From Gemmatimonadota bacterium (GTDB taxonomy: Bacteria > Gemmatimonadota > Gemmatimonadetes > Gemmatimonadales > GWC2-71-9): a DNA stretch of 64,000 nt. This document shows positions 50,187 to 64,000 of this stretch, piece after piece. The DNA lies in assembly GCA_036679645.1 (NCBI GenBank), contig JAZDCY010000014.1, forward strand, positions 192,001 to 256,000, in the 5' to 3' direction. Made by a program: the position numbers and the translations under genes. The notes under the pieces are model-generated. The model was not told the DNA's origin, ran no database searches, and worked only from the letters and a program-made list of their open reading frames with translations. Every line of letters begins with the position of its first letter. Position 1 is the first letter of the stretch.

Positions 50187-50404
50187 GGTTTCGCGGGTTA
50201 ATTGGCCTCGTGCCTTTGCCGGAAGTCTCCCGAACCGCATCGGGGTGCGCGTTACGCTCCCGCGCCCCGACACGTTCACCAAGTACGATTGCAACCCCGA
50301 CGACCGTTGCCGCGTCTAACAGGTAGTTCGAAACTCACGCGACGCGGTACCGAATGGCGTTGCAACCTGTATCAGTCGTCTTGCTTCGAGAACTGGGATC
50401 ATCA

Positions 50405-53044
50405 ATGAACGCAACGCATCTCACCGCTGGTTTGCTTCTTGTTGCGATTGCCACGCCGGCCGCCGCACAGCAACAGAGTCTTTCCAACGTCAGGACACCG
50501 AGCGCCACGACCGCTGTCGCTGTTCGCATACGTGCCGACGTTCCCAAGCTCGACGGACGGATGGACGAGGCCGTGTGGCAGAGTGCGTTGCCCTTCTCCG
50601 ATTTCACCCAGCGCGACCCCGACGAAGGGGAACCGGGGACGGAGCGAACCGAGGTTCGTATCCTTTATACTGACGCCGCGCTCTACTTCGGCATCCGCGC
50701 GTTCGACTCGGAGCCCGATGGAGTTCAGGCACAGCTCACACGGCGTGATGAGCACTCGCCGTCGGACTGGATCCAGATCGCCATCGACTCGTATCTCGAT
50801 CGACGCACCGCATTCGTATTCGCCGTTAACCCGGCGGGTGTGAAACGTGACATCTACTTCTACAACGACAACAATCAGGACCGGACGTGGGACGCGGTAT
50901 GGGATGTTGCGGTAGAGCGCGACGGCGAGGGCTGGGGCGCGGAGTTTCGTATTCCCTTTAGTCAGCTCCGGTTCTCCGAGTCCGAGTCACAGACATTCGG
51001 CCTCCAGGTCACGCGGACGATCAATCGGAAGAACGAGGTGCAGCACTGGCGTCTCATGCCGAAGACGGAATCGGGCGTCGTGTCGCGCTTTGGCGATCTG
51101 GTCGGGATCGACGGCGTATCTCCGCCGCGTCGTCTCGAGATCATGCCATACGTAGTGGCACGGCAGGACGTGAACGCCGGTGTCAGTGGCAATCCGTTCC
51201 AGTCGGGGCACGATAGGGTCGGGACGATGGGTGCCGACATCATTTACGGTATATCCTCGAACCTCACGCTCACCGCAACGATCAACCCCGACTTCGGGCA
51301 GGTTGAGGCGGATCCGGCGGTTGTGAACCTGTCGGCCTTTGAGACGTTCTTCCCCGAGCGCCGTCCCTTCTTCCTGGAAGGTGTGGACATCTTCCAGTTC
51401 CCGGGCAACGGCCAGAATTCGCTCTTTTACACACGTCGTATTGGGCGGCGCCCGCAGGGAAGCGCCGATCCGCGCAACGGCTTTGCACAGTCGATCTTCA
51501 ACACGACCATCCTGGGTGCCGCGAAACTCACGGGCAAGACCCAGAGTGGGTGGACCATCGGCCTCCTTGGGGCACAGACGGCACGAGAGACCGCCGACAT
51601 CCTGGGCGGGGACGGGCTCGACTACAGAGACGTCGTGGAGCCGGCGACGACCTATCTCGTGGGCCGTCTGCAGCGCGATCTGCGCGGTGGACAGACGGTG
51701 TTCAGCCTGTTCGGTACCGGCACGATCCGAAATCTACCGGACGAGGGGAACCTCGATTTCCTGCGTAGCCGCGCGTTCTCGTTCGCGGGCAGTTGGGAGC
51801 ACCGGTTCCGCAACGACACGTACTCGATTCGTGGCTGGGCTGGGGTCACCAACATCAGCGGCTCTGAGCTGTCGATCGAGTTGGCCCAACGCTCGTCGGC
51901 CCGCTATTTCCAGCGCCCGGACAACGACTACACGACATTCGACCCCACCCGGACCAGCCTCAACGGCTTTGGTGGTGAGATGACGTTCCAGAAGCACGGC
52001 GGCGGGAACTGGCGCTTTGCCACAGGGGTCGAGACCCGCTCGCCAGGATTCGAAGTGAACGACATCGGTTTCCAGAACAACGTAGACTGGATCTCGCAGT
52101 GGGCCTGGGTGCAGCGCCGTTGGGTGCAGCCGGGCAAGGTCTTTCGCCGGTTCATCGTCAACTTCAACCAGTGGTCTAATTACACGTATGGATGGGATCG
52201 CACCAATATCGGCGGTAACCTCAACACGAACTGGACCTTCCTCAACTACTGGGGTGGGTTCGGTGGTGTGAACTACCAGACCGGCGGTCTGGGAACAGGC
52301 GCCCTCCGCGGCGGTCCCGCGTTTATTCGCCCACCGAGTATAAACGGGTGGGCCGGCTTCAGCAGCGACGGGCGCAAGAAGGTTCAGATGTCGGCCGGAG
52401 GGTGGTACTTCCGGCAGTTCGCTGAAGAGACCAAGTCAGGCGGCGTCTGGATGGACATGACGGTCCGGCCGGCTGGGAACCTGAACCTCACATTCTCGCC
52501 CAACGTGAACTGGACCCGCGACGACTGGCAGTACCTCAGCACGCAGGAGGCGCTGGGCGAGACGCATTACCTCTTTGGCGACCTGTCACAGACGACAGTG
52601 GGCACACAGTTCCGTGGGAACGTGACGTTCACGCCTACGCTCTCGCTGCAGCTCTACGCCGAGCCGTTCGTGTCGTCGGGTCGGTACCTCGAGTACAAGC
52701 AGGTGGCCGACCCGCGGGCCGAGTTATACGCGGACCGCTTCGACAAGTTCAACGACGACCGCCTGATCGTCGATGGCGCGGATGTGTCCGTCGATCTCGA
52801 CCAGGACGGCACTGCTGACCTCGACATCGGGAACCCGGACTTCACCTTCGTGCAGTTCCGATCGAATGCCGTGCTGCGCTGGGAGTACCGCTCGGGATCG
52901 TCACTCTTCGTGGTGTGGCAGCACGGGCGCAGCGGATTCAACCGCGACGGTCGGTTCGACTTCTCACAGGGTGTCGGTGACCTGTTCCGGCAGCCGGGCG
53001 AGAACACGTTCGTGGTGAAGCTGAACTACTGGTTCTCACTGTAG
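50405..53044 (+). CDS. CBM9-like + DUF5916 outer membrane protein
   Basis: Signal peptide, LDGRMDEAVW, INPDFGQVEAD, FFPERRPFFLEG, LFYTRRIG, VLRWEY, terminal aromatic. Confidence 0.88.
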   Translation: MNATHLTAGLLLVAIATPAAAQQQSLSNVRTPSATTAVAVRIRADVPKLDGRMDEAVWQSALPFSDFTQRDPDEGEPGTERTEVRILYTDAALYFGIRAFDSEPDGVQAQLTRRDEHSPSDWIQIAIDSYLDRRTAFVFAVNPAGVKRDIYFYNDNNQDRTWDAVWDVAVERDGEGWGAEFRIPFSQLRFSESESQTFGLQVTRTINRKNEVQHWRLMPKTESGVVSRFGDLVGIDGVSPPRRLEIMPYVVARQDVNAGVSGNPFQSGHDRVGTMGADIIYGISSNLTLTATINPDFGQVEADPAVVNLSAFETFFPERRPFFLEGVDIFQFPGNGQNSLFYTRRIGRRPQGSADPRNGFAQSIFNTTILGAAKLTGKTQSGWTIGLLGAQTARETADILGGDGLDYRDVVEPATTYLVGRLQRDLRGGQTVFSLFGTGTIRNLPDEGNLDFLRSRAFSFAGSWEHRFRNDTYSIRGWAGVTNISGSELSIELAQRSSARYFQRPDNDYTTFDPTRTSLNGFGGEMTFQKHGGGNWRFATGVETRSPGFEVNDIGFQNNVDWISQWAWVQRRWVQPGKVFRRFIVNFNQWSNYTYGWDRTNIGGNLNTNWTFLNYWGGFGGVNYQTGGLGTGALRGGPAFIRPPSINGWAGFSSDGRKKVQMSAGGWYFRQFAEETKSGGVWMDMTVRPAGNLNLTFSPNVNWTRDDWQYLSTQEALGETHYLFGDLSQTTVGTQFRGNVTFTPTLSLQLYAEPFVSSGRYLEYKQVADPRAELYADRFDKFNDDRLIVDGADVSVDLDQDGTADLDIGNPDFTFVQFRSNAVLRWEYRSGSSLFVVWQHGRSGFNRDGRFDFSQGVGDLFRQPGENTFVVKLNYWFSL

Positions 53045-53117
53045 ACGGAAGGGCGGACAGGCGGAAGGGCGGAATGAACACCTTCCGCACTTCCGCACTT
53101 CCGCCCTTATTCCGCCC
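53045..53117. repeat. 8-bp-unit direct/inverted repeats (GGCGGAAG / CTTCCGCA)
   Basis: Visible in intergenic gap; can form a hairpin. Confidence 0.7.
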
Positions 53118-53705
53118 ATGCTCGACAGCATCGCGAACTTGATCGAGGCCTCGGGGCCGCTGGTCTACATCCTGGCCCCGCTGTTCATGGTCTTCGTCGC
53201 GATCCTGCCGCTCCCGGCGGAGGTCCCGGCGATGGTCAACGGCATGGTGTTCGGTCCGGCGCTGGGAACGGTGATGACGTGGGGCGGTGCCATGATCGGC
53301 GCTGCCGTGAGCTTCGAGCTCGCGCGACGCTATGGGCGGCCGCTCGCGCAACGGGTTCTCCCGGGAGATGCACTCGGCAAGGCCGACCGGTTCGTCGTCG
53401 CCACCGGATGGGGCGGGCTGTTGACCGCGCGCCTGATTCCCGCAATTGCGTTCACCGCGTTGAATTGGGGACTCGGTCTCTCAGGCGTGCCGCGCCGGAC
53501 GTTCTTATGGACCACCGCGGTCGGGATTCTGCCCGGAGCCATTGTCTTCACCGCGACGGGGACCGGATTGGGAGCGCTGTACCGCGCCCACCCGTCTGTG
53601 GCCTATGGGCTCGTTGCGGCGGCGCTAGTGGTGTTCGTGTGGGCGGGGGTGCGGTACTGGCGCAACCGGGAGGCTAATCCCTCGCGAGCGGAGCCGGCTC
53701 CCTAG
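53118..53705 (+). CDS. TVP38/TMEM64 (DedA/VTT) family membrane protein
   Basis: LPLPAE...GMVFG, FELARRYGRP, RLIP, FLWTTAVGILP. Confidence 0.88.
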   Translation: MLDSIANLIEASGPLVYILAPLFMVFVAILPLPAEVPAMVNGMVFGPALGTVMTWGGAMIGAAVSFELARRYGRPLAQRVLPGDALGKADRFVVATGWGGLLTARLIPAIAFTALNWGLGLSGVPRRTFLWTTAVGILPGAIVFTATGTGLGALYRAHPSVAYGLVAAALVVFVWAGVRYWRNREANPSRAEPAP

Positions 53706-54556
53706 CTACCGTTCTCCAAGGCCACCCTCATCTCGTTGGCCGACTCCCACCGTTCCTCGCGTACCTTCCTCAGCGCCTTGCCGATCCCTTCGGCGAGCAC
53801 GGGCGGCGTGTCCTTCCGGAACTCGCGTACGTCGGGCGCCTCCTCCGTTTGCTGCAGTCGCAGCACCGTCTCTTCGCGCTGGTGGACGAATGGCGGGCGT
53901 CCGGCAAGGCACTCGAACAGCACACACCCCATGGAGTACACGTCGGTTCGGTAGTCGATGTCCTCGGCCCCGGCAACCTGCTCGGGACTCATGTACGCTG
54001 ACGTCCCAACGGTGAAGCCCGACCGCGTGAGGCGCGTCGATCCCGCGGCCGCGATCGCCTTGGCAATGCCGAAGTCGAGCAGCATGGCCCCGTTCGCGCT
54101 CAGCACGATATTCTCAGGCTTGACGTCGCGATGCATGATACTGTTGGCGTGCGCATACCCCAGTGCGGCGAGCATGTCACTGGCAATACGACACGTGTCC
54201 GACACCGACGCGCGCCGTACCCGATCGAGGTGCTGACGTATGTTCGGCCCCTCAATAAAATCCATCACATAATAGATGAAATACTCCGCTTCGCCCGAGT
54301 CGAGCACCCGTGCAATCTGTGGGTGATCGAGTTCCCGCAGCATCTGTACCTCGCGCTGGAACCGATCTGCAGTGACCGTCACCGCCAACTCGGGATGGAG
54401 CACCTTGACCGCCTTGGGCTCACCGTTCGGGTCACGCGCAAAGAACACCCGCGACGCCCCACCGCGCGCAATCAGACGCTCGACCTTGTAACGGCCTTCG
54501 AGCGCCTCCTGAATCAGCGGGAGCAACTCACGACGGGCGATGGTACACCTCCGCAA
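53702..54556 (-). CDS. Stand-alone cytoplasmic Ser/Thr protein kinase
   Basis: AVKVL, HRDVKPEN, DFG, GTSAYMSPEQ, DVYSMG. Confidence 0.92.
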   Translation of the reverse strand: MRRCTIARRELLPLIQEALEGRYKVERLIARGGASRVFFARDPNGEPKAVKVLHPELAVTVTADRFQREVQMLRELDHPQIARVLDSGEAEYFIYYVMDFIEGPNIRQHLDRVRRASVSDTCRIASDMLAALGYAHANSIMHRDVKPENIVLSANGAMLLDFGIAKAIAAAGSTRLTRSGFTVGTSAYMSPEQVAGAEDIDYRTDVYSMGCVLFECLAGRPPFVHQREETVLRLQQTEEAPDVREFRKDTPPVLAEGIGKALRKVREERWESANEMRVALENGS

Positions 54557-54577
54557 TGAAAAGCCGTGGCATGACCG

Positions 54578-56638
54578 TCACAGCAGCAAGTCGTTCCGAA
54601 TCCGCTTCCGCACCGCCCACCACATGGCGAGGAGAACGCTGGTTTGCCGCACGACGATCTTTGCCTCGCCGGTGACGCCCGGATACAGTCCGTCAAGACC
54701 ACTGGGCACGCGGATCCGCGCCTCGAGCGCATCGCTGGAATCGGCCGCCGGCGCGACGGAGTGCACCGGGGCCTCAACCGCGCGCCGCGGTGTCGCGTAT
54801 GGCAGCAGCGACGCACGCTGCCCCGCCGCCACGAGCGTTGCCCCGGCCCGGTCGAGCGTCACGCGTAACTCCAAAGAATCGAGCACGCTGACGGACGCCA
54901 CCGTTTCCCCGGCCTCGAACGCCCGCCCAACTCGCTCGCGGAGCCGCCGCGTCACCAACACACCGCTCACCGGCGCGCGCAGGGTGAGCCGCCGCACCCG
55001 CTCGCGCGCCCCGAGCAGCCGGGCGGCCGCTTCGTCCCGCGCCAATTCCGCTTGGCGGAGCGCGGCATCAAGCCCGAGCGCTCGCGCGCGCAGCGCCGAC
55101 ACACCCAGCGAATCGACGACGCGCTCGAGCGACACAACCTCGCGTTCCAGTGTGAAGTTACGCAACCGCACCACCACCGCTCCGGCATCGACCGAGTCGC
55201 CTTCGCCAGCATAGATCTCCGTAAGCACACCAGCATCGGGCGACGTTAGCGGCGCCTCGAAAACTGGTGCTGCAACGAACCTGCCCTTCACGAGCAGCGG
55301 CCATGGGACTAGTACCGACATGACGAGGAGCACGACCGCGAGCCCAGCCACGGAACCGACTACGCGCCCCCTCAAGAGACGAGCACGATGCTCACGGAGC
55401 GATGTGGCGACAGCGCGTGCCCACTCGCGGATCGTGGTGCGCAACATTACCCAGAGAAGCAGCACGAAGCCCAGCACGCCGACCACACCGAAGGCCCGGC
55501 TGGCCCATCCCATTACCACCGTCGCCACGAGGCCGAGGATGGCAAAGATGTAAGCGATCGCCAGAACACCATACGTCACCAGCGCACGGCGTTCGCGAAG
55601 ATCCGCAACAGGGGGCTCGGGCACGTTGAGCCGAATCACATGGCGCCGGATGAGCCATGTGACGTGCGCCAGCGCCCGCTGCCGCAGGTTGGGGATCTCC
55701 AGGTAGTCACTGAGGGCGTAGTACCCGTCGAGCGGTATCAGCGGGTTTGCATTCGCGATCACCGTCGTCGCACCCCCGACCAGGACCGCAAAGAACGCCA
55801 CACGGGAGATCACACTCGACGGATCCACGATGACCCACACGATGGCGGCGATTCCCGCCACCACGAGTTGAATCCACGAGCCTGCCGCCGTGACCCAGAG
55901 CCGCTGCGAGAGTTTCGAGAAGGTCCATGCATCGTTGACGTTGCAGTAGAACGCCGGCTGGAAGTACAGCAGCATTGCGCCCAACTCGTGTACCTGTCCG
56001 CCAAAGTACTTGCACGTAACGCCATGTCCGAGTTCGTGTATGATGATGACGACCATCGCCGTCCCCCAGAAGAGGACGATGTTCTGGAGCGTGTAAAACT
56101 CGACCGAGTACATCGCCGTAATGCCATTGGCGATGTCCCCCCACCGCAGCACGAAAACGCCGAGGTATACGGCGAAGAGCGCAAGCGAGATACCAATAAA
56201 CGTCCGCGTGAAGAACAGCCGCAACACCGGCATCCAGCGGTCGAACAACTCGTCGGGATCACCCGCCGACCACCGCATGCGGAGCAGGCTCCCCTCGTAG
56301 TGCGTGCCCTTTACGCGCCGATGCCGTTCCGCACGCATTCGTTCCATGAGCAGCGTGGATTTCTCGCCGAGTGTGCGCTCGAACAACTCCATCTTGGAGA
56401 GCCGACCGGCGAACTTCTGTAGCTTCGCCTCGCTTAGCGGAAGCCCCTGCTCCGCCAACCCGGCGGCGAGTTGAGCGAACGTGTGCTCTCCTGTGAACTG
56501 CTGCATGATGAGGACTTCGAGTGGCTTGAAACGAAAGTACTTGTGGGTCTCCGGGTCCTTGACGATATACGTCTGCTCGCCCCGGTACTGCTGCACGACG
56601 ATAATCAGATCGTCGCGAAGTTTGGGTCGTCCCCTCAA
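54578..56638 (-). CDS. PqqD/RRE-like domain + M50 (site-2) metallopeptidase + HlyD-type membrane fusion domain
   Basis: N-terminal YIVKDP..YFRF winged-helix pattern, HELGH, NANPLIPLDGYY, lipoyl-like halves and LYPGVTGEAKI. Confidence 0.88.
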   Translation of the reverse strand: MRGRPKLRDDLIIVVQQYRGEQTYIVKDPETHKYFRFKPLEVLIMQQFTGEHTFAQLAAGLAEQGLPLSEAKLQKFAGRLSKMELFERTLGEKSTLLMERMRAERHRRVKGTHYEGSLLRMRWSAGDPDELFDRWMPVLRLFFTRTFIGISLALFAVYLGVFVLRWGDIANGITAMYSVEFYTLQNIVLFWGTAMVVIIIHELGHGVTCKYFGGQVHELGAMLLYFQPAFYCNVNDAWTFSKLSQRLWVTAAGSWIQLVVAGIAAIVWVIVDPSSVISRVAFFAVLVGGATTVIANANPLIPLDGYYALSDYLEIPNLRQRALAHVTWLIRRHVIRLNVPEPPVADLRERRALVTYGVLAIAYIFAILGLVATVVMGWASRAFGVVGVLGFVLLLWVMLRTTIREWARAVATSLREHRARLLRGRVVGSVAGLAVVLLVMSVLVPWPLLVKGRFVAAPVFEAPLTSPDAGVLTEIYAGEGDSVDAGAVVVRLRNFTLEREVVSLERVVDSLGVSALRARALGLDAALRQAELARDEAAARLLGARERVRRLTLRAPVSGVLVTRRLRERVGRAFEAGETVASVSVLDSLELRVTLDRAGATLVAAGQRASLLPYATPRRAVEAPVHSVAPAADSSDALEARIRVPSGLDGLYPGVTGEAKIVVRQTSVLLAMWWAVRKRIRNDLLL

Positions 56639-57597
56639 TGCGCCACCGGCGCCAGCCGTTCGCCGGCGGCGAGCCCGCGCACCACCTCGACACGCCCATC
56701 CTCGAGCGTCGCGCCCAACGTGACACTGCGCAGCGAGGTCCGCCCGCCCGCCCAGACGAGGACATAGCCCTCCTCCGCAACGACCCCAGCGGGGACGACG
56801 AGGATCTGGCGCCTGGTAGCGGCAAGACGCACACGGACACTGGCCCCCGGCTCTAGAGGAGTACCCCGCGCGAGCTGCACGACGACCTCCCGCGTACCGC
56901 TCGACGGATCGATCGTCGGTGAGACGCGGTCGACCGTCGCCGGATGTTCACTCCCATCCAACGAGACGACGGTAACCTCGGTCCCCCGTTCGATCGTGCT
57001 CGCACCTTCCGGGAGCTGCACCGATGCGCGCAGCGGTTGTAGCGCGCTGACCCGGAAGAGCGAGTCGAGCTCTTCCACCAGGCGTCCACGTCGCACGACG
57101 CGCGCGGTCACCACGCCGCTGAACGGCGCGATGGCGCGTGTCAGGTCGTAATTGCGCTGCGCCTGGCGGGTGCCAAGCTCCCACCGCCGATACTCCAGCT
57201 CGGCAAATTCGGAGTCGGCTACGGCTACGGCTCCCGTGCCCGCCAACTCGCGGAAGCGTTGAACCTGACGCTCTGCGTTGGCCAGGTTGGCCTGGGCGTC
57301 CGCGAGCGCAATCTCCTGATCGACGCTCTCGAGCCGGGCAAGTACCTGCCCTTCTCGCACGCGGTCGCCAATATCCACCAGCACTCGCTCGACGATGCCC
57401 ATGGATCGCGCGTACACGTACGCGTCGTGCTCCACATACAGTTGCGTCGGCAACTCGAGCGGCAGATCGACAGTGGCCGTGTCCACCACGATGACCGGTG
57501 CCGCCGCCACGGATGGCTCGGGGGTCTCCGGCACGGCGTCACCGCCGCACCCGCTGGTGATCCACGCCATCGCCGTCGCCGTCGCATACCATCTCAT
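56635..57597 (-). CDS. RND/HlyD periplasmic adaptor (MFP) lipoprotein
   Basis: ITSGC lipobox, VDIGDRVREGQVLARL, APFSGVV, VSPTIDPSSGT; 4-nt overlaps with both neighbours. Confidence 0.9.
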   Translation of the reverse strand: MRWYATATAMAWITSGCGGDAVPETPEPSVAAAPVIVVDTATVDLPLELPTQLYVEHDAYVYARSMGIVERVLVDIGDRVREGQVLARLESVDQEIALADAQANLANAERQVQRFRELAGTGAVAVADSEFAELEYRRWELGTRQAQRNYDLTRAIAPFSGVVTARVVRRGRLVEELDSLFRVSALQPLRASVQLPEGASTIERGTEVTVVSLDGSEHPATVDRVSPTIDPSSGTREVVVQLARGTPLEPGASVRVRLAATRRQILVVPAGVVAEEGYVLVWAGGRTSLRSVTLGATLEDGRVEVVRGLAAGERLAPVAH

Positions 57598-59531
57598 GGA
57601 ACGAGCCTCCACCAGAGCAACCGCGCCCACCGTGTGGGCGCTCGCAGTAGCCGGCTGAGCACCGAAGTCGGTGCGGTTAGCACCTTGGCGTGCGCTGCCA
57701 TGCCGGGTCGCAGGACGCCCTCGTCATTGGGAACGAGACCTCGGATAACGAAATACACCTCCGACGTCGTCTCGACCGGCAGCGGCGGCACGAAGGTCAC
57801 GCGCCCCTCAAACGTCCGCTGCGGCAGTGCATCCACACGCAACCGAATGCGCTGGCCGACCTCGACCCGATTGATGTCTCGTTGCCGCACTCCCAGCTCC
57901 AACTCGAGCGAGTCGGTGCGACCAAGGGCAAGAACCGACTCACCGGCTTCGGGTCTGGTGCCGACCAGTTCCTCGGGTCGCGCCGTCAACACGACGCCAT
58001 CGACCGGCGCGCGTACCGTAGTCGCCGCAATCTCTTCGTCCAGCAGCGCCAGCTGCCGGCCCAGTGACACCACACGCGCGCGCTGGATGCGCTCCGCCGT
58101 TGCATCGTTGCGTGCGTCCGCTGCCGCCGCGCTACGTTCGGCAATCTGCAGCGTCGCGTCAGCCGCCTCCCGATCCGCCCGCAGCTCTACAGCACGCAGC
58201 AGGACGAGCGGGTCGCCCCGCGTGACCGCCTGTCCCTCGCGCACCAGGACCCGTTCGATCACGCCCGGGACGATGGGCCGTGCCTCGGAATAGGTCGCGG
58301 CGCGGAATGTGGGTGCGGCACCCGTCACCCGGAACGGCCAGCGAATGAGCGTGATCGCGGCGAGCGCGACGAGAGCGGTCACTGCGTAGACGGCCACGCG
58401 GCGGCGCGGCAGCGCCAGCAGTTTCCTCTTCTTCTCCGCGAGGGCGCCCAGCATGTCGACCAGCGGCACCTGGTTGTACAGCTCGGCGTTGCGCAGTGCC
58501 ACGGCCGTCTGGTTGGCGAGAATCGCCACCATCTCGCGCTGCGTGTCGGAAGCGAACGCCGGTCGCTTCGCCTCGAAGAGCAGCACACCCAGGGCACCTT
58601 CTTCATCGACCAGTGGGAGATACAACCCACTGCGGATCTCATCCGTTGCCAGTCCCTCACCCGCCGCGTTGACGAAGGCCCGTTCGTCGTCGGTCGAGAC
58701 CGCTTCCCGGTCCGCCAGGTAGAAAGGCTCGCCACGCCCCAGGACCCAACTGCCGCGGTCCTGGAGCCGCCGCACCCCCGCGTCCTTGGGATCGATTTCG
58801 TCCTTCCCGGCGATCGCGCGGATCTCGTACTTGGCCCGGTCCACCAGGCCGATGGCGCCGATCTCGAAATCCAGCGCACGGGTGGCGAGGTTCACCACCG
58901 ACGTCAGGATACGATCGAGGTCCAGTGTGGAGGTGACCTCCCGGCTGATCTCGAGCAACATCGCGAGATCGTGCGCGCGCTTTTCGGCGGTGTGCAACTG
59001 CGCGTTACGCAGCGCGACCGCGGCACTGCGGGCCAGGCCCTCGAGGAGCAACCGATCGCCCTCCTCGAAGATACCGGCCCCAGTCACCTTGTTGGTGACC
59101 TGAATGGAGCCGACCGTTTGGCCCCGGACCACCATTGGCGCTGCCAGCACGCCGGTCGTGATCATGGTGCTGGATCGGTCCACGCGGTCCTGGAAGCGAG
59201 GGTCCTGCATGGCGTCGGCCACGATCGTGCTGCGCTGCTTCCGGGCCACATCCCCCACAAAACCTTCCCCGATGGGAACCTCGCTGCCCACCAGCTTCTG
59301 GCTTGCCGCGCCCAGCGCCAACCGGCAGCGCAAGATCTCCCCTTCGGCAATCCAGATCGACCCGCCCTGCGCCCCCACCGCGTCGAGTACTCTGTTGAAG
59401 ACCGTGGGCAGCAACTCGTCGAAATCGAGCGAGGATGAGAACTCTTGAGATATGGAATGCAGAAGGCGGAGGCGGTCGACTTCACCCTGAAGCCCGTCGC
59501 CAGCACCTGGTTGCACCGGATCGTCGTTCAT
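57594..59531 (-). CDS. GAF-GAF-HlyD family secretion adaptor
   Basis: Two GAF domains (SSLDFDELL...VALRNAQL; STLDLDRIL...VALRNAELY), TM, then HlyD motifs, LRPGMAAHAKV. Confidence 0.9.
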   Translation of the reverse strand: MNDDPVQPGAGDGLQGEVDRLRLLHSISQEFSSSLDFDELLPTVFNRVLDAVGAQGGSIWIAEGEILRCRLALGAASQKLVGSEVPIGEGFVGDVARKQRSTIVADAMQDPRFQDRVDRSSTMITTGVLAAPMVVRGQTVGSIQVTNKVTGAGIFEEGDRLLLEGLARSAAVALRNAQLHTAEKRAHDLAMLLEISREVTSTLDLDRILTSVVNLATRALDFEIGAIGLVDRAKYEIRAIAGKDEIDPKDAGVRRLQDRGSWVLGRGEPFYLADREAVSTDDERAFVNAAGEGLATDEIRSGLYLPLVDEEGALGVLLFEAKRPAFASDTQREMVAILANQTAVALRNAELYNQVPLVDMLGALAEKKRKLLALPRRRVAVYAVTALVALAAITLIRWPFRVTGAAPTFRAATYSEARPIVPGVIERVLVREGQAVTRGDPLVLLRAVELRADREAADATLQIAERSAAAADARNDATAERIQRARVVSLGRQLALLDEEIAATTVRAPVDGVVLTARPEELVGTRPEAGESVLALGRTDSLELELGVRQRDINRVEVGQRIRLRVDALPQRTFEGRVTFVPPLPVETTSEVYFVIRGLVPNDEGVLRPGMAAHAKVLTAPTSVLSRLLRAPTRWARLLWWRLVP

Positions 59532-59603
59532 GCCAATGGGTTACCTCCGCGTACAAGAGGCTCTCTCCGAGGCACGCTGTCAAGGCGGATGCGCCAAAAC
59601 GCG

Positions 59604-59638
59604 ACGCGCCGGATCCCCACCCAGGAGATCCGGCGCGT
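59604..59638 (-). terminator. 12-bp hairpin between peptide 1 and exporter operon
   Basis: ACGCGCCGGATC / GATCCGGCGCGT perfect stem. Confidence 0.6.
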
Positions 59639-59659
59639 GTCTGTGAAAAATCGGTGTTG

Positions 59660-59803
59660 CTACCCGAGGCGGAACGGGGCGATCCGCTCTTCCAGCTCTT
59701 CAGCGGTCAGCTCGAGGGCCTCGGCATCTTTGCCGGTGACTTTCTTGAGCTCCTCTTTCTGCTCATTGGTGAGCTCGATGCGGATTTTCTTCGCGTCGGA
59801 CAT
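59660..59803 (-). CDS. Putative precursor peptide 1 (47 aa, ELEERIAP-FRLG)
   Basis: AAGGAGG RBS; MSDAKKIRIELTNEQKEELKKVTGKDAEALELTAEELEERIAPFRLG; two paralogs adjacent. Confidence 0.88.
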   Translation of the reverse strand: MSDAKKIRIELTNEQKEELKKVTGKDAEALELTAEELEERIAPFRLG

Positions 59804-59848
59804 TACTGCCTCCTTCGAAGGGTTGTGACGGATGAATCGAACGCCACA

Positions 59849-59901
59849 AAGATGGTTGGGAGTCGTGAAAACCCCGTGAATCTCCACCGGGGTATCGTGA
59901 A
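59849..59901 (-). promoter_or_regulatory. Promoter with three TTCACG direct repeats and CATCTT -10 (copy A)
   Basis: CGTGAA at 59864, 59875, 59896; AAGATG at 59849. Confidence 0.75.
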
Positions 59902-59916
59902 GGCCACAAGCGGCCC

Positions 59917-59955
59917 AACGAAAGGCGCCGGATCCCTGTCGGAGGACCCGGCGCC
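59917..59955 (-). terminator. Terminator after peptide 2
   Basis: GGCGCCGGGTCC...GGATCCGGCGCC stem then TTTCGTT. Confidence 0.65.
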
Positions 59956-59980
59956 CCGGAGTTGGTGTCTCGATCCTTGG

Positions 59981-60136
59981 CTATATGCCGAGCCCCGGGC
60001 CGCGCATGGGTGCGATGCGCTCTTCCAACTCTTCGACGGACAGCTCGATGGCCTCGGCATCTTTGCCAGTGGCCTCGCGCACGGCTTTCTTCTGCTCGTC
60101 CGTCAGGCTGATCTTGAAGCTGGGATTGGTCGTCAT
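59981..60136 (-). CDS. Putative precursor peptide 2 (51 aa, ELEERIAP-MRGPGLGI)
   Basis: Own translation, missing from ORF track: MTTNPSFKISLTDEQKKAVREATGKDAEAIELSVEELEERIAPMRGPGLGI; GGGGAG RBS. Confidence 0.88.
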   Translation of the reverse strand: MTTNPSFKISLTDEQKKAVREATGKDAEAIELSVEELEERIAPMRGPGLGI

Positions 60137-60151
60137 GGTAACAGTCTCCCC

Positions 60152-60301
60152 TTAGCTCAGGCGGAAACGTGAGGGAGCGATCCGCTCTTCCAACTCTTCG
60201 GCGGTCAGCTCGAGGGCCTCTGCATCTTTGCCCGTAATCTTCTTGAGCTCTTCCTTCTGCTCCGCGGTGAGCTCGATGCGGAACTTCTTGTCGTCGGACA
60301 T
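60152..60301 (-). CDS. Putative precursor peptide 3 (49 aa, ELEERIAP-SRFRLS)
   Basis: AGGAGG RBS; MSDDKKFRIELTAEQKEELKKITGKDAEALELTAEELEERIAPSRFRLS. Confidence 0.88.
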   Translation of the reverse strand: MSDDKKFRIELTAEQKEELKKITGKDAEALELTAEELEERIAPSRFRLS

Positions 60302-60344
60302 GGTGCCTCCTGAAACGGGTGCCGGAGTGACGCGAACGAAGGCC

Positions 60345-60397
60345 AAGATGACCTGGCGGCGTGAATCCACCGTGAATTCGACTTGCCGGATCGTGAA
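60345..60397 (-). promoter_or_regulatory. Promoter with three TTCACG direct repeats and CATCTT -10 (copy B)
   Basis: CGTGAA at 60360, 60371, 60392; AAGATG at 60345; spacing identical to copy A. Confidence 0.75.
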
Positions 60398-60439
60398 TTC
60401 CCCGTAGTTTTGACCTCCCCGTCTCTCCCGGGGAGGGCT

Positions 60440-62689
60440 GTGGACCTTCAACTGACGCTGCTGGGGCCCCCGCGCCTCACGATGGATCCGGAACCCGAGG
60501 CCGTGCCACGCCTTGGTGCGAAACCCATTGCCCTGCTTGCATTTCTGGCAATGGAGCCGGGCCCCCACGCCCGCGACGAGTTGGCGGGGCTCCTGTGGTC
60601 AGATTCCCCCAACGATGCAGCCCGGGCTTCGCTGCGTCAGGCGATCCGCCAAATCCGAGGCGTCGTGGGCGAACGGCTCCAGGCGGGGCGCACCGCGGTG
60701 GAGCTGGACCCACCTATCCCGTGTGACGCCCGTGCGTTCCTGCAAGCCGTAAGTGAGGCGCCGGAGACTGCCGTCTCCTACGCCGCTGACCGGTTCCTTG
60801 CGGGCTTCTCGGTGCGCCATGCCCCGGCCTTCGAGGAGTGGACCGATACAACCCGGGAACGGTTGCGCCAGGCGTTCCGCGATGCGCTGCGCGCCGCCAC
60901 GCTCGGCGACATAGGTCGCTCGCGTTGGCGGGATGCGGCCCGGTGGGCGGAGCGGTGGATTGCAGCCGATCCCCTGTCCGACGAGGCGGTGCGCCACGCC
61001 GCCCAGGCGTGCTACATGGCCGGCGATACCGGCGAGGCGCTGGCCCAGTTTCAGCAATACCGCGAGCGGCTGGCCAACGAGACCGGCATGGAACCGGCAG
61101 ACGCGCTGCGCGAGCTGCTGGAAAGGATTGGACCCACTCCTCCGGTGGCCCAGCTGGCCGCCCCGCCGCCGGATACCGATCTCCCGAAACGGGGGTTCGT
61201 ATCGAGCCTGATCGGCCGGGAGGCGGAGTGGGAGCGGCTCACACAGGTGTGGCGCGAGGCGGCGGCGGGCGCATGTCGGACCATGCTGATTCAGGGCGAG
61301 GCGGGAATCGGCAAGACGCGGCTGGCCGAGGAACTGCTGCAATGGACCGCGGCAGAGGGAGCAACGGCCCTCCGCGGCAGGGGATACGATCCGGAGAGCG
61401 GCCTGCCCTATCAGCCCGTGGCCGACGCGCTGCACGGCGCACTGCAGGCACCGGGAATGGCGAGCGCGGCCCCTGAATGGCTCGCGGAGCTGGCCCGGAT
61501 CGTCCCGGACGTGCGCGAGCGCTTCCCGGGCCTTCCGACTGCCGCCGGGGCCGGCGATCCAGACCGGCGCGGCCGGCTGTTCGAGGCGGTGGCGCAGGCG
61601 ATCCTGGGACTCACGTCGGAGCGAGCGGTAGTGCTCCTAATTGACGATCTCCAGCGCTGCGATCCCGAGACGTGCGCCCTGCTCCATTTCCTCACGCGGC
61701 GGTTGGCGCGTGCTCCGATCCTGATTCTCGCCACCGCGACACTGGGCGAGATCGAGCGCGCGACCCCAGCCTCGCGCCTCTGTCGCACGCTCAAGGGCGG
61801 CGGTGCCGCGATCACCGTCTCTCCGCTGTCCGAAGCCCAGGTGTGGCGCGCCATTCGTGAGTTGGGCCGTATTTCGAGCCCCGATGGTGCGCGGCGCTTT
61901 GCGCGCCGCGTCCATGCTGTGACCGACGGCAATCCGTTCCACATCCTGGAGCTGCTCAAGGCCCTCTTCGCGCAGGGCATGCTGCAGACCGACCCGGCCA
62001 CCGGCGAATGGGTCACGACCACCGCGACCGGGGATGCTCCGTACGATCATGTGCGCATGCCGGCCACCGTGCACGACGCCGTTGCCGAGCGGTGCACGCG
62101 GCTGCCATACGAGCTGCGGGACCTGCTGGTGACCATGGCGGTGGCGGGCCGGCCCGTATCGACCGGCTTGCTCTCGCACGTGCACGGGACCTCGCGGCTG
62201 CGGGCCGCGGCGCTTGCCGACGCGCTGGTCGACCGCCTCCTCCTGGCGGAAGACAACGGTATGTACGGCTGCGCGCATCCCATTGTGCAGGATGTCGTGC
62301 GCGAGGACCTGACACCCGCACGAAGAGGCGAGGTACACCGCGCGATCGCGCTTGCTCTCGATACGCTCGCCCGCGACAGCCGGGGCGGCTGCCGACCCGG
62401 CGAGATCGCACGGCACGCGGAGCGGGGTGGCGAACTCGCCCTCGCGTTTCGTTGTGCGCTGGAAGCTAGCGACCTCGCGGTAGAAAATGGCGCCTACGAG
62501 GAGGCGCTCTCGTGGCTGGATCTTGCCGGAAGTGCGGCAGATTCCGAGACCGACACCGCCGCGGTCCACGAACGCACGGCGCGCCTCATGGAACGCACCG
62601 GCTGGCCCGAGCCGCCCGTGGGCGGCCACCGGAGCGGCACGCCGGCCGCCGGCTTCAGCCGGCAGGACATCGATCTGCGGCCGTCCTGA
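60440..62689 (+). CDS. SARP-like transcriptional activator (wHTH + BTAD + AAA ATPase)
   Basis: LTLLGPP, ALLAFLA, RDELAGLLW, ARASLRQA, DPLSDEA; LIGREAE, GEAGIGKT Walker A, LIDDLQ Walker B, TDGNPF. Confidence 0.9.
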   Translation: MDLQLTLLGPPRLTMDPEPEAVPRLGAKPIALLAFLAMEPGPHARDELAGLLWSDSPNDAARASLRQAIRQIRGVVGERLQAGRTAVELDPPIPCDARAFLQAVSEAPETAVSYAADRFLAGFSVRHAPAFEEWTDTTRERLRQAFRDALRAATLGDIGRSRWRDAARWAERWIAADPLSDEAVRHAAQACYMAGDTGEALAQFQQYRERLANETGMEPADALRELLERIGPTPPVAQLAAPPPDTDLPKRGFVSSLIGREAEWERLTQVWREAAAGACRTMLIQGEAGIGKTRLAEELLQWTAAEGATALRGRGYDPESGLPYQPVADALHGALQAPGMASAAPEWLAELARIVPDVRERFPGLPTAAGAGDPDRRGRLFEAVAQAILGLTSERAVVLLIDDLQRCDPETCALLHFLTRRLARAPILILATATLGEIERATPASRLCRTLKGGGAAITVSPLSEAQVWRAIRELGRISSPDGARRFARRVHAVTDGNPFHILELLKALFAQGMLQTDPATGEWVTTTATGDAPYDHVRMPATVHDAVAERCTRLPYELRDLLVTMAVAGRPVSTGLLSHVHGTSRLRAAALADALVDRLLLAEDNGMYGCAHPIVQDVVREDLTPARRGEVHRAIALALDTLARDSRGGCRPGEIARHAERGGELALAFRCALEASDLAVENGAYEEALSWLDLAGSAADSETDTAAVHERTARLMERTGWPEPPVGGHRSGTPAAGFSRQDIDLRPS

Positions 62690-62749: not shown

Positions 62750-64000
62750 TCAACAGCAATCAGCACCTACCGTGCAACACGCGTACGAGACACGATCCTC
62801 GTGCGGTGCGAGTAGAGCGAACATGTCGGCGTAGGGCGGCCGCTGCAGTTTCGCGACCGTGTCGGTGCAGACCTCGTAGGGCTCGTTCCGCATGAACTGG
62901 TGGCCTTCCTCGTCGACGAAGATCTTCCCCGGACCGAGATACACCGCCCGATGTCCCTGAAACACGCATCCGTCCATCTTCTCGAACTTGTACCCGGCCA
63001 CCGTGACCGACGAAAAGGCGTACCCTTCGACTTCCTTCCAGAACGACTTCTCCTGCACCGTGAGGCCGTAGAATCCGGCGCGCTCCAGCTCGGCCATGAA
63101 CTGTTCTTCGGTCAGCGCGCCCACGAGACATTCACCCCATAACTTTGGGTTCACGCGCAAGTGCGGGGGGACGGGCCGATCGCTCACAATGTCGGATATC
63201 ACGAGCCGCCCGTGGTCGGCGAGTACGCGCCAAACTTCCGCGAACACGCGGGGCTTGTCCGGCGAGAGGTTCACGACACAGTTGGAGGTGACGACGTCGA
63301 CGGTTCCTGACTCGACCGGGATGGCCTCGAGAAATCCCTTGCGGAACTCCACGACGTCGTACCCGAGGTTCGTCGCCACGGCGGGCCTGCATGAATTGGC
63401 AACCGACAACATCTCGTCGGTCATGTCGATGCCGATGGCGCGGCCGCCGGCCCCGACCAGCTTCGCCGCAATGAAGACATCGATCCCCGCGCCGGAGCCC
63501 AGATCGAGCATCATCTCGCCGAGCTGCACCGCCGCACGCGTAACCGGCGACCCGCAGCCGTAGAAACGATCGAGCACGTCCTGCGGGATGTGGTCGGTCA
63601 TGCTCCGGTCGTACGACGTCGGGCAACACAGATCGGCCTTGGGGGACTCGGCCGCGGCACCGTAATATTCACGCACCGCGCGGCGCGGTTTGTCCACGTC
63701 GAACGACAGCACGCAGTTGGAGTGCAACGGCAACACGGGTCGCTCGGCGAGGGCGCCGTCAGCGGTGCCGCAGGCAATCGCACCTTCCCCCATGGCGTGC
63801 AACACGACCGGCGCGTCGTACCCCGACCGGTGATTCAGTCGATCGCGTTTTTCCCGCCCTAGCGTGGTCATTACGCGGCGGATCAACGCCTGCGTCACCG
63901 GATAGTAGGGATCCGGGGCGAACGGATCGCCGCCGGAGAAACACCACGCGTGCTCCCAGTCGCCGCCACCCGTCAGGAAGCGCAACGGATCGTCGTGGAC
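62750..64000 (-). CDS. ArsM-like SAM-dependent methyltransferase with large N-terminal extension (5' end beyond window)
   Basis: LCCP, FYGCGSP, LDLGSGAGID, GIDMTDEML, SNCVVNLSPDK, WGECLVGAL, terminal Cys pairs; frame open to window edge. Confidence 0.85.
   Translation of the reverse strand, partial: VHDDPLRFLTGGGDWEHAWCFSGGDPFAPDPYYPVTQALIRRVMTTLGREKRDRLNHRSGYDAPVVLHAMGEGAIACGTADGALAERPVLPLHSNCVLSFDVDKPRRAVREYYGAAAESPKADLCCPTSYDRSMTDHIPQDVLDRFYGCGSPVTRAAVQLGEMMLDLGSGAGIDVFIAAKLVGAGGRAIGIDMTDEMLSVANSCRPAVATNLGYDVVEFRKGFLEAIPVESGTVDVVTSNCVVNLSPDKPRVFAEVWRVLADHGRLVISDIVSDRPVPPHLRVNPKLWGECLVGALTEEQFMAELERAGFYGLTVQEKSFWKEVEGYAFSSVTVAGYKFEKMDGCVFQGHRAVYLGPGKIFVDEEGHQFMRNEPYEVCTDTVAKLQRPPYADMFALLAPHEDRVSYACCTVGADCC

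Follow-up and report, generated by a model that had tools for sequence, protein, structure and literature searches.

On balance, we favour the view that the locus described here encodes a leader-guided cut-and-export system for unmodified micro-peptides, which are probably signals. The locus lies in a window of 64,000 nucleotides, the whole stretch of DNA that was analysed, and all coordinates refer to it. Its genes form a fixed cassette of a SARP-type activator, a GAF-GAF-HlyD protein, an MFP lipoprotein, an RRE-M50-HlyD protease and a short kinase. We propose that the RRE of the membrane protease binds the ELEERIAP end of the precursor and that the M50 site would cut after the leader proline, a position taken from the daptide cut at P(-1) (PMC10036551). 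The unmodified tails of 4–8 residues would then pass, without a dedicated ATPase, through a tunnel that the three adaptors probably form together with a TolC encoded outside the cassette. By analogy with the models for a related module (Kamneva 2015, PMC4452313) and for EpeP (PMC10885120), both of which were accessible in part, the protease may double as the inner-membrane path. The activator would act on both promoters of the peptide genes, and the system may be tuned by the kinase and by the GAF domains.

Precursor peptides and their linkage to the cassette

Three small genes on the minus strand encode P0001 (60152..60301; 49 amino acids), P0002 (59981..60136; 51 amino acids) and P0003 (59660..59803; 47 amino acids). 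Each is preceded by a ribosome-binding site, and the products, 56–85% identical pairwise, consist of a 43-residue leader closing with ELEERIAP and a tail of 6, 8 or 4 residues (SRFRLS, MRGPGLGI and FRLG, respectively). The pattern L[EDQ][EDQP]RI[AV]P is confined in the 4.05-Mb genome to these precursors and one match deep in a long ORF. They have 467 database homologs and belong to a large Gemmatimonadota family in which a conserved leader with the same ending precedes a hypervariable, cationic tail of 3–21 residues. Leaders are 80% identical and tails 12%, and the pN/pS of the leader is 0.26 (1627 pairs). Within the tag, E-8, L-7, E-6, R-4 and P-1 are conserved at a level of at least 99%, and L-33, T-32, Q-29, T-21 and G-20 upstream of it at a level of at least 96%. 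Judged by these substitution patterns, the small ORFs are under purifying selection and evolve as coding sequence. The initial annotation, which had taken them for three paralogous small ORFs, is borne out by this coding-type evolution, by the ribosome-binding sites and by the position kept in 58 of 59 loci.

The tails themselves share no residue among the 149 compared: Ser or Thr is present in 83, Trp or Tyr in 27, Cys in 2 and a terminal Thr in 2. A shared enzyme target would not fit tails of such shortness and diversity, so they are most likely strain-specific signals; this role is the least certain part of our reading. A second leader type has a different N-terminal half and the same last residues, and in two loci tandem repeats ending in R-x-x-P follow a homologous leader. 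Small proteins lacking the tag also carry the N-terminal module of the family. Orphan peptides are frequently found near long kinases, a proximity that is uninformative because the genomes concerned hold 48–99 kinases. Weak Pfam and NCBIfam matches of the peptides (DUF1192, HTH_OrfB, Os1348 NHLP) were discarded at 16–17 bits versus cut-offs of 21–40, and the ESM Atlas returned unnamed clusters only.

The peptide–exporter linkage expected from the single locus holds across genomes. In a survey of 401 Gemmatimonadota genomes (peptide cut-off E<=1e-10), 46 of 50 peptide-bearing genomes hold the protease, within 10 kb in 42 of the 46, and 345 genomes have neither; these counts, like all others given here, include kin, so that entries are not independent. 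One to three peptides are present in 58 of the 59 loci with enough upstream DNA, and GAF-GAF-HlyD in all 59 informative loci. Exceptions are a genome with all three machine genes in which no cargo was found (G409), a locus with no peptide nearby (L074), and 33 of 112 strong peptide matches that have no protease within 10 kb, some of them due to contig breaks.

Regulatory elements and machine genes

Upstream of precursor 1 lies promoter 1 (60345..60397, minus strand), with a probable SARP box of three TTCAC repeats and a probable -10, CATCTT. Promoter 2 (59849..59901, minus strand) precedes precursor 3. As the initial annotation had it, the two are identically built: in both, the repeats are spaced by 21 and 11 bp and followed after 8 bp by CATCTT. 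This pattern occurs upstream of 74 of 108 homologous peptide genes versus 18 of 3000 random windows; sigma-70 promoter and terminator scans of the stretch returned matches at chance level. A strong RNA hairpin 3' of precursor 2 (59924..59955, minus strand; fold z -3.3) is a probable terminator or stabiliser, and another strong one separates precursor 3 from the machine genes (59604..59638, minus strand; fold z -4.0).

The divergent activator (60440..62689, plus strand) combines wHTH-BTAD with a STAND/AAA ATPase (Pfam BTAD and AAA_16), in agreement with the earlier call of a divergent BTAD-AAA regulator. Its start is probably GTG 60440 rather than the ORF-finder start at 60383, and it is present in 58 of 59 informative loci. 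Residues 22–255 are similar to EmbR (E 1e-5) and, more weakly, to AfsR (E 0.002). AfsR-type repeats are described as lying 11 or 22 bp apart, with 8 bp separating the last of them from the -10 of a gene for a small protein (PMC10936776, accessible part). Sequence features of an AfsR-type SARP regulon recur here, namely wHTH-BTAD plus NOD and spaced repeats 8 bp from the inferred -10, with an upstream spacing of 21 bp at this locus. Common to this locus and the Streptomyces AfsK-AfsR-afsS system (PMC10936776, same part) are a SARP plus NOD activator and a kinase in the cluster. By contrast with that system, the activator has a shorter C-terminal region and no clear TPR sensor, its predicted target is a secretion-type precursor, and the phylum is different.

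All machine genes are on the minus strand, and the earlier domain calls (GAF-GAF-HlyD, MFP, M50 plus HlyD, Pkinase, BTAD plus AAA_16) were upheld. The GAF-GAF-TM-HlyD adaptor (57594..59531; 645 amino acids) has one transmembrane segment at about residues 378–396. The MFP lipoprotein (56635..57597; 320 amino acids) scores above the cut-off of TIGR01730 and has an RLS-type hairpin tip; its start is probably ATG 57597, which gives the lipobox ITSG-C. Next comes the RRE-M50-HlyD fusion, an intramembrane zinc protease (54578..56638; 686 amino acids) with about seven transmembrane segments. Overlaps of 4 nt join the GAF-HlyD gene to the MFP gene and the latter to the M50 gene. The proposed coupled operon thus stands for these three genes but not for the stand-alone Ser/Thr kinase (53702..54556; Pfam Pkinase; probable start ATC 54541, downstream of GGAGG), which sits beyond a gap, uncoupled. 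Cassette kinases nevertheless form a clade of their own (support 0.999 in an approximate FastTree tree), separate from the 92 other kinases of the genome, and occur in 32 of the 37 loci whose flanks are long enough. Rather than being an incidental neighbour, the kinase belongs to the cassette as a conserved, dedicated member.

The HELGH zinc motif of the protease (56024..56038, minus strand; residues 201–205) has its third ligand, D304, in NPxxxxDG, and H201, E202, H205 and D304 are invariant among 87 homologs. The protease family comprises 2,052 representatives (50% clustering, E<=1e-30), and the best NCBIfam model, NF041824, is matched with 204 of 300 bits, below its cut-off. Residues 5–90 (56369..56626, minus strand) are predicted to adopt a PqqD-like RRE fold with b3a3 topology. 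The ten best Foldseek rows for this model are all RRE-bearing, and superposition on 6jx3_B gave Z 10.5 and rmsd 2.5 with 82 residues aligned, which corroborates the RRE suspected at the N-terminus of the M50 protein. A profile comparison with one daptide RRE gave a probability of 6%, and a structure search with the full-length protease model had only MFPs among the matches listed. Going by its fold and by analogy, this RRE would bind the leader at the ELEERIAP end.

In the MFP family the tip is conserved as R (74/74), L (74/74) and T or S (67/74), with Ala at the third position in the copy at this locus; a clear RLS motif is absent from the other two adaptors, GAF-GAF-HlyD and RRE-M50-HlyD. 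This sequence motif points to a TolC conduit. Ten TolC-type genes are present elsewhere in the genome, and TolC genes adjoin 5 of the 10 plasmid homolog loci that were inspected by annotation or ORFs. Hence the system, first suggested to be self-contained, probably is not. The absence of a tailoring enzyme, ABC ATPase or TolC from the locus, by contrast, extends to the relatives: among the recurring elements of the cassette there is no ABC pump, no TolC, no SecA copy and no tailoring enzyme.

Related systems and larger cargo

Kamneva, Poudel and Ward (2015) described in silico a module of secondary SecA_DEAD, Peptidase_M50-HlyD, GAF-HlyD and HlyD and proposed the M50 protein as an inner-membrane pore (PMC4452313). 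The same HlyD-bearing trio is found here; that module, too, has no ABC transporter and often has TolC elsewhere, and our protease is 26–28% identical over 570–645 amino acids to plasmid examples of this type. Unlike it, the present cassette has no secondary SecA, precursors of 47–51 amino acids as cargo, and an added SARP activator and kinase. Based on these sequence comparisons, the machine is a SecA-less form of the T1SS-related Kamneva module with a protease resembling daptide DapP. The idea of an undescribed system therefore needs qualification: the three-protein core had already been reported together with SecA, whereas the accessible portion of that paper gives no cargo, leader, RRE or functional experiment.

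Daptides share an RRE–intramembrane site-2 protease fusion (MpaP/DapP) and several precursors per locus, and their leader motif ELExMEAP, cut at P(-1), has E, L, E, A and P in register with ELEERIAP (Ren et al. 2023, PMC10036551, accessible part). They differ in that HlyD is fused on here, cores are cationic and not aliphatic, the host is Gram-negative, the invariant terminal Thr is missing, and the cassette has neither DapB/C/D/M enzymes nor an ABC transporter. LEPR-XLL (NF012209)/DUF4347 giants have h-x-h-E-x-L-E-x-R-h-h as their N-terminal tag, in matching register, and their genes adjoin homologous machines; those proteins comprise thousands of residues, the tails here 4–8. Daptide precursor HMMs gave no peptide match at E<=0.1, and P0001–3 did not match NF012209, while a genuine daptide precursor and the positive controls matched. 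Both links thus rest on motif register because the peptides miss both HMM sets. A 2026 preprint (10.64898/2026.03.19.712371) reports transfer of two LEPR-XLL-type giants with a TolC/SapC/HlyD model, M50 being unmentioned in its text.

The M50 epipeptide protease EpeP/YydH is likewise thought to cleave and export its peptide (PMC10885120, accessible part), but our protease reaches only 55 of 225 bits against the YydH/LiaK family and has RRE and HlyD fused on; a radical-SAM epimerase, which epipeptide systems have, does not recur near the cassette. PCAT/T1SS bacteriocin exporters also couple leader removal to export via MFP and TolC, but here ABC and C39 domains and a double-glycine leader are lacking, and there are three adaptors in place of one. 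A literature search with LEERIAP returned unrelated papers only, and the peptide–protease pairing is not described in the open literature searched. M50 and HlyD are absent from the main text of RRE-Finder (PMC7470986) and PMC12710340, and we found no experimental study of an RRE-M50-HlyD machine.

Related proteases adjoin cargoes bearing the same tag with Gly/Asn/Ser-rich tails of 24–82 residues or with tails of 1084 and 1204 residues, and more distant ones adjoin LEPR-XLL giants whose tags align in register. Of 80 distant metagenome loci, only 15 gave true hits to the strict tag, at a density of about 30 per Mb; for the genome the figure is about 1 per Mb. Cargo classes track protease clades. 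Where leaders are lysine-rich, the RREs are acidic (net -5 to -10 versus about +2 here), a charge pairing that is essentially one sister-clade contrast, with L258 (acidic tag, RRE -8) as an exception. More tentatively, we suggest that RRE-M50-HlyD, GAF-HlyD and MFP may constitute a distinct secretion pathway without an ABC or RND pump, in which the RRE reads an N-terminal E-x-L-E-x-R-x-x-P tag and the intramembrane protease, acting as the inner-membrane gate, removes it. Cargo would range from 3 to more than 12,000 residues, giants adding a SecA motor and micro-peptides none, and in Gemmatimonadota the pathway would underlie a so far unrecognised and highly diversified language of peptide signals.

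Alternative explanations and implications

The cassette could instead serve an envelope-sensing feedback loop in which the leader or its removal acts in the cytoplasm to regulate the SARP activator, the kinase or the GAF domains, the tail being little more than filler for cleavage. This we regard as rather unlikely. It would account for the conservation of some 30 leader residues outside the RRE tag, though some other cargo classes have leaders of 10 residues, and it fits the lack of a tail consensus, the N-terminal module on small proteins without a tag, and a kinase/SARP/small-protein trio reminiscent of AfsK-AfsR-afsS (PMC10936776, accessible part). However, tail composition is selected (R+K 21–28%, D+E 0.4–3%), SRFRLS recurs among relatives (P0001, P0005 and P0006), large extracellular-type cargo adjoins related machines, and the RLS-type tip suggests a TolC conduit.

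It also seems unlikely that transport is powered by an ABC or RND pump or a housekeeping SecA encoded elsewhere, with the cassette supplying peptidase and adaptors. Homologous modules beside giant proteins often come with a secondary SecA (PMC4452313), daptide clusters contain ABC transporters, and tripartite systems are described with an energised inner-membrane part (PMC8277102; both papers accessible in part). On the other hand, two of the three adaptors carry their own transmembrane anchor, some giant-protein loci have no SecA within the stretch examined, and each of five genomes searched gave a single SecA_DEAD match, our own genome being 92.7% complete. Moreover, no transporter or enzyme family recurs near the cassette in 80 loci, in a survey of the 627 ORFs that passed a filter, by which some others may have been removed. 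Two neighbour clusters, in 20–22 loci, were dismissed as antisense shadows of cassette genes, and the other recurring neighbours, each in at most 10 of the 80 loci, are housekeeping-like by eye.

The same survey bears on the idea of a modified RiPP, with tailoring enzymes acting in trans or the cassette kinase phosphorylating the tail, which we consider very improbable. An RRE and a leader/core layout are typical of RiPPs, multi-copy and orphan precursors occur, and the kinase is a dedicated member; yet no enzyme family recurs, no residue is common to the 149 tails, and 5 of the 37 loci with enough flank have no such kinase. Purifying selection, ribosome-binding sites, the 467 homologs and the conserved position effectively exclude that the small ORFs are repeats without translation or arose through faulty assembly, even though neither RNA nor proteomic records of them were seen. 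Run X1 contains the entire window without a mismatch but may be its source, and so adds no independent support.

The cassette is the smallest form of the machine with a defined, synthesisable cargo and can therefore be used to test an intramembrane protease as the inner-membrane part of a tripartite exporter. It likewise makes the purpose of the LEPR-XLL tag on giant proteins testable. If leader-guided cutting and export holds true, the function of RREs would extend from RiPP tailoring to secretion targeting. Gemmatimonadota are an abundant, little-studied soil phylum, and the same reading, if true, would reveal their peptide repertoire, with 144 distinct tails among 149.

Composition and linkage of the cassette

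The composition of the cassette is fixed. The initial annotation placed its three small ORFs and its five large genes correctly (53702–62689), and among the 59 loci with enough upstream DNA (from the best 80 of 305 GTDB loci) GAF-HlyD and MFP genes occur in all 59, the regulator in 58 and peptides in 58. The short kinase, a clade separate from 92 other kinases of the own genome, is found in 32 of the 37 loci whose flanking sequence is long enough. No further recurrent family near the cassette exceeds 10 of 80 loci. Genes for a DUF5916/CBM9 protein and a VTT/DedA-family protein (50354–53705, forward strand) adjoin the cassette in the closest relatives only and do not belong to it. Positions 62750–64000 (reverse strand) hold the C-terminal end of a long gene with an arsenite-methyltransferase-like domain; its product has 824 aa in L031, a relative from the same genus. 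The proposed translational coupling holds for GAF-HlyD, MFP and M50-HlyD, which have 4-nt overlaps, but not for the kinase, which is set off by a gap.

Homolog names assign the organism to the Gemmatimonadales. Co-occurrence of peptide and exporter was borne out in 401 genomes spread evenly over the phylum: the protease is present in 52, the peptide (E ≤ 1e-10) in 50, both in 46 (42 of them at most 10 kb apart) and neither in 345, counts that are descriptive and not statistical, related genomes and loci not being independent. Weak peptide matches (E ≤ 1e-3) without protease occur in 16 further genomes. Of six protease-only genomes, four have a different, short-leader peptide class adjoining the protease and one has a contig break inside the cassette; in G409 a cargo was looked for and not found. 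Frameshift-split cassette genes (G277:C57, G360:C14, G394:C4, G408:C7, L093, L124) are probably long-read assembly errors.

Precursors and their probable regulation

The small peptides are real genes. Those of the window share 56–85% identity and carry ELEERIAP followed by 6, 8 or 4 residues; the peptide profile picks up 467 proteins out of 547 candidates. Across 149 peptide genes from retrieved loci, five tag positions reach 99% conservation or more, and the conserved stretch ends exactly at the proline of the tag. In 1627 pairs at 75–97% nucleotide identity, leader pN/pS is 0.26, and the leader is 80% identical versus 12% for the tail. Tails range from 3 to 21 aa, 144 of 149 are distinct and 126 are net positive. 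Orphan precursor copies distant from the cassette (G193:C3, G394:C3/C5, G101:C3/C10, G226:C1; L142–L149) reach six per genome, with one array of four, and are presumably processed in trans. Further small proteins (L016, L017, L018, L028; L014, L159, L160) also carry the N-terminal leader module, there followed by different C-termini that are themselves conserved; one is Trp/Arg-rich and another closes with a hydrophobic His/Trp stretch. Most of these proteins come from genomes in which a search did not find the protease.

TTCAC repeats stand at both promoters with 21 and 11 bp spacing, the last one 8 bp before CATCTT. The pattern lies upstream of 74 of 108 peptide genes versus 18 of 3000 control windows, 11 bp being the most common spacing, followed by 22 and 33; this layout corresponds to the SARP promoter geometry given in PMC10936776. 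The divergently encoded regulator shows similarity to EmbR and AfsR. Hairpins located after precursors 2 and 3 would hold peptide mRNA above machine mRNA. Kinase translation probably begins at a non-canonical ATC (54541), 6 nt downstream of GGAGG and aligned with a TTG start in L032. The own genome (G000, 4.05 Mb) encodes 99 Ser/Thr kinase domains, many of them arranged in tandem, as on contig C8.

A proposed model for processing and release

The RRE initially proposed for the N-terminus of the M50 protein is supported by its predicted fold, three strands and three helices best matching leader-binding RREs. Foldseek placed TbiB1 first (E 1.5e-3), with no match below E 0.001, and in a structure comparison the four best matches were all RRE-bearing (Z 10.5 to 6jx3_B). 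The zinc ligands of the M50 domain are invariant among homologs. Two invariant cysteines, C209 and C232 (56012 and 55943), lie on either side of the loop that follows the zinc motif. About seven TM segments precede a periplasmic adaptor in M50-HlyD, GAF-HlyD has a single TM, and the third protein, the lipoprotein MFP, bears an RLS-type tip. RLS is known as a contact motif for TolC. The own genome encodes one SecA and ten TolC-type proteins, with the closest TolC-type gene about 26 kb away.

The most economical reading, which we hold somewhat more probable than not, is that the RRE of the protease would recognise the leader, the M50 site would cleave after proline, and the freed tail would leave through the adaptor tunnel into a shared TolC. 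The cut site has a precedent in daptides, whose leader ELExMEAP accompanies an RRE-site-2 protease (PMC10036551), with DapP later given as predicted leader remover (PMC12670281), and a protease serving as pore was proposed for the Kamneva module (PMC4452313), with EpeP as a second precedent (PMC10885120). Speculatively, a peptide of few residues might do without a motor after cleavage. Alternatively, the long leader might work in cytoplasmic feedback, which we consider unlikely; a pump borrowed from elsewhere seems a shade less likely still. Tailoring in trans is very improbable; no residue is common to all 149 tails (2 contain Cys, 2 end in Thr and 83 contain Ser/Thr).

Related machines and other cargoes

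Among 80 metagenome loci with distant proteases, a strict tag search matched 17, including two with spurious matches at internal positions; tagged cargo mostly has 24–82-aa low-complexity tails, and in L258 the tails measure 1084 and 1204 aa. Some of the remaining loci were inspected by looser criteria, and part of these had no visible cargo. At L184 (12387–12767) and L188 (12359–13176), a homologous leader precedes 7–9 tandem repeats of about 10–13 aa ending in RANP; these possible multi-core substrates adjoin triple-GAF-HlyD/MFP/M50-HlyD. Lysine-rich leaders with short tails adjoin sigma-54 regulators, and lysine-rich leaders pair with acidic RREs, with one exception. At L193, L200, L201 and L203 (12.2–13.7 kb) and at L219, L220, L227 and L244, genes for lysine-rich 23–38-aa precursors, and for longer ones that contain repeats, converge with those of the same machine; a sigma-54 response regulator, often with STAS genes, stands in place of SARP. 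Elsewhere (L050, L162–L165, L199, L208), arrays of 1–5 short-leader precursors lie immediately upstream of a lone M50-HlyD, with no GAF-HlyD or MFP at these loci; their tails are rich in Asn/Gly/Ser/His, and near-identical tails occur on distant contigs.

The protease matches 38 plasmid records. In ten full-length Proteobacterial matches examined, a large or giant repeat protein lies upstream in nine and one is at the record's edge; five have TolC and several a SecA-like gene. Four of the N-termini compared show LEPRFLL, LEPRVLL, IEPRILL and LEARYMF in the LEERIAP register; two others, from Azospirillum and Magnetospirillum, begin without a tag as annotated. In a 68-sequence protease tree, each cargo class occupies clades of its own; support for the class-B node is 0.43, and G409 clusters with two class-A proteases.

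The cassette is not a daptide cluster because it lacks the terminal Thr and the daptide enzymes, nor a T1SS/PCAT because it has no ABC; it shares the three-protein core of the Kamneva module but is not a full one because the secondary SecA is absent. The literature accessible to search yielded no account of the peptides or the tag–protease pairing. In its proposed working, the system resembles a cross between leader removal as in daptides and export of type I.
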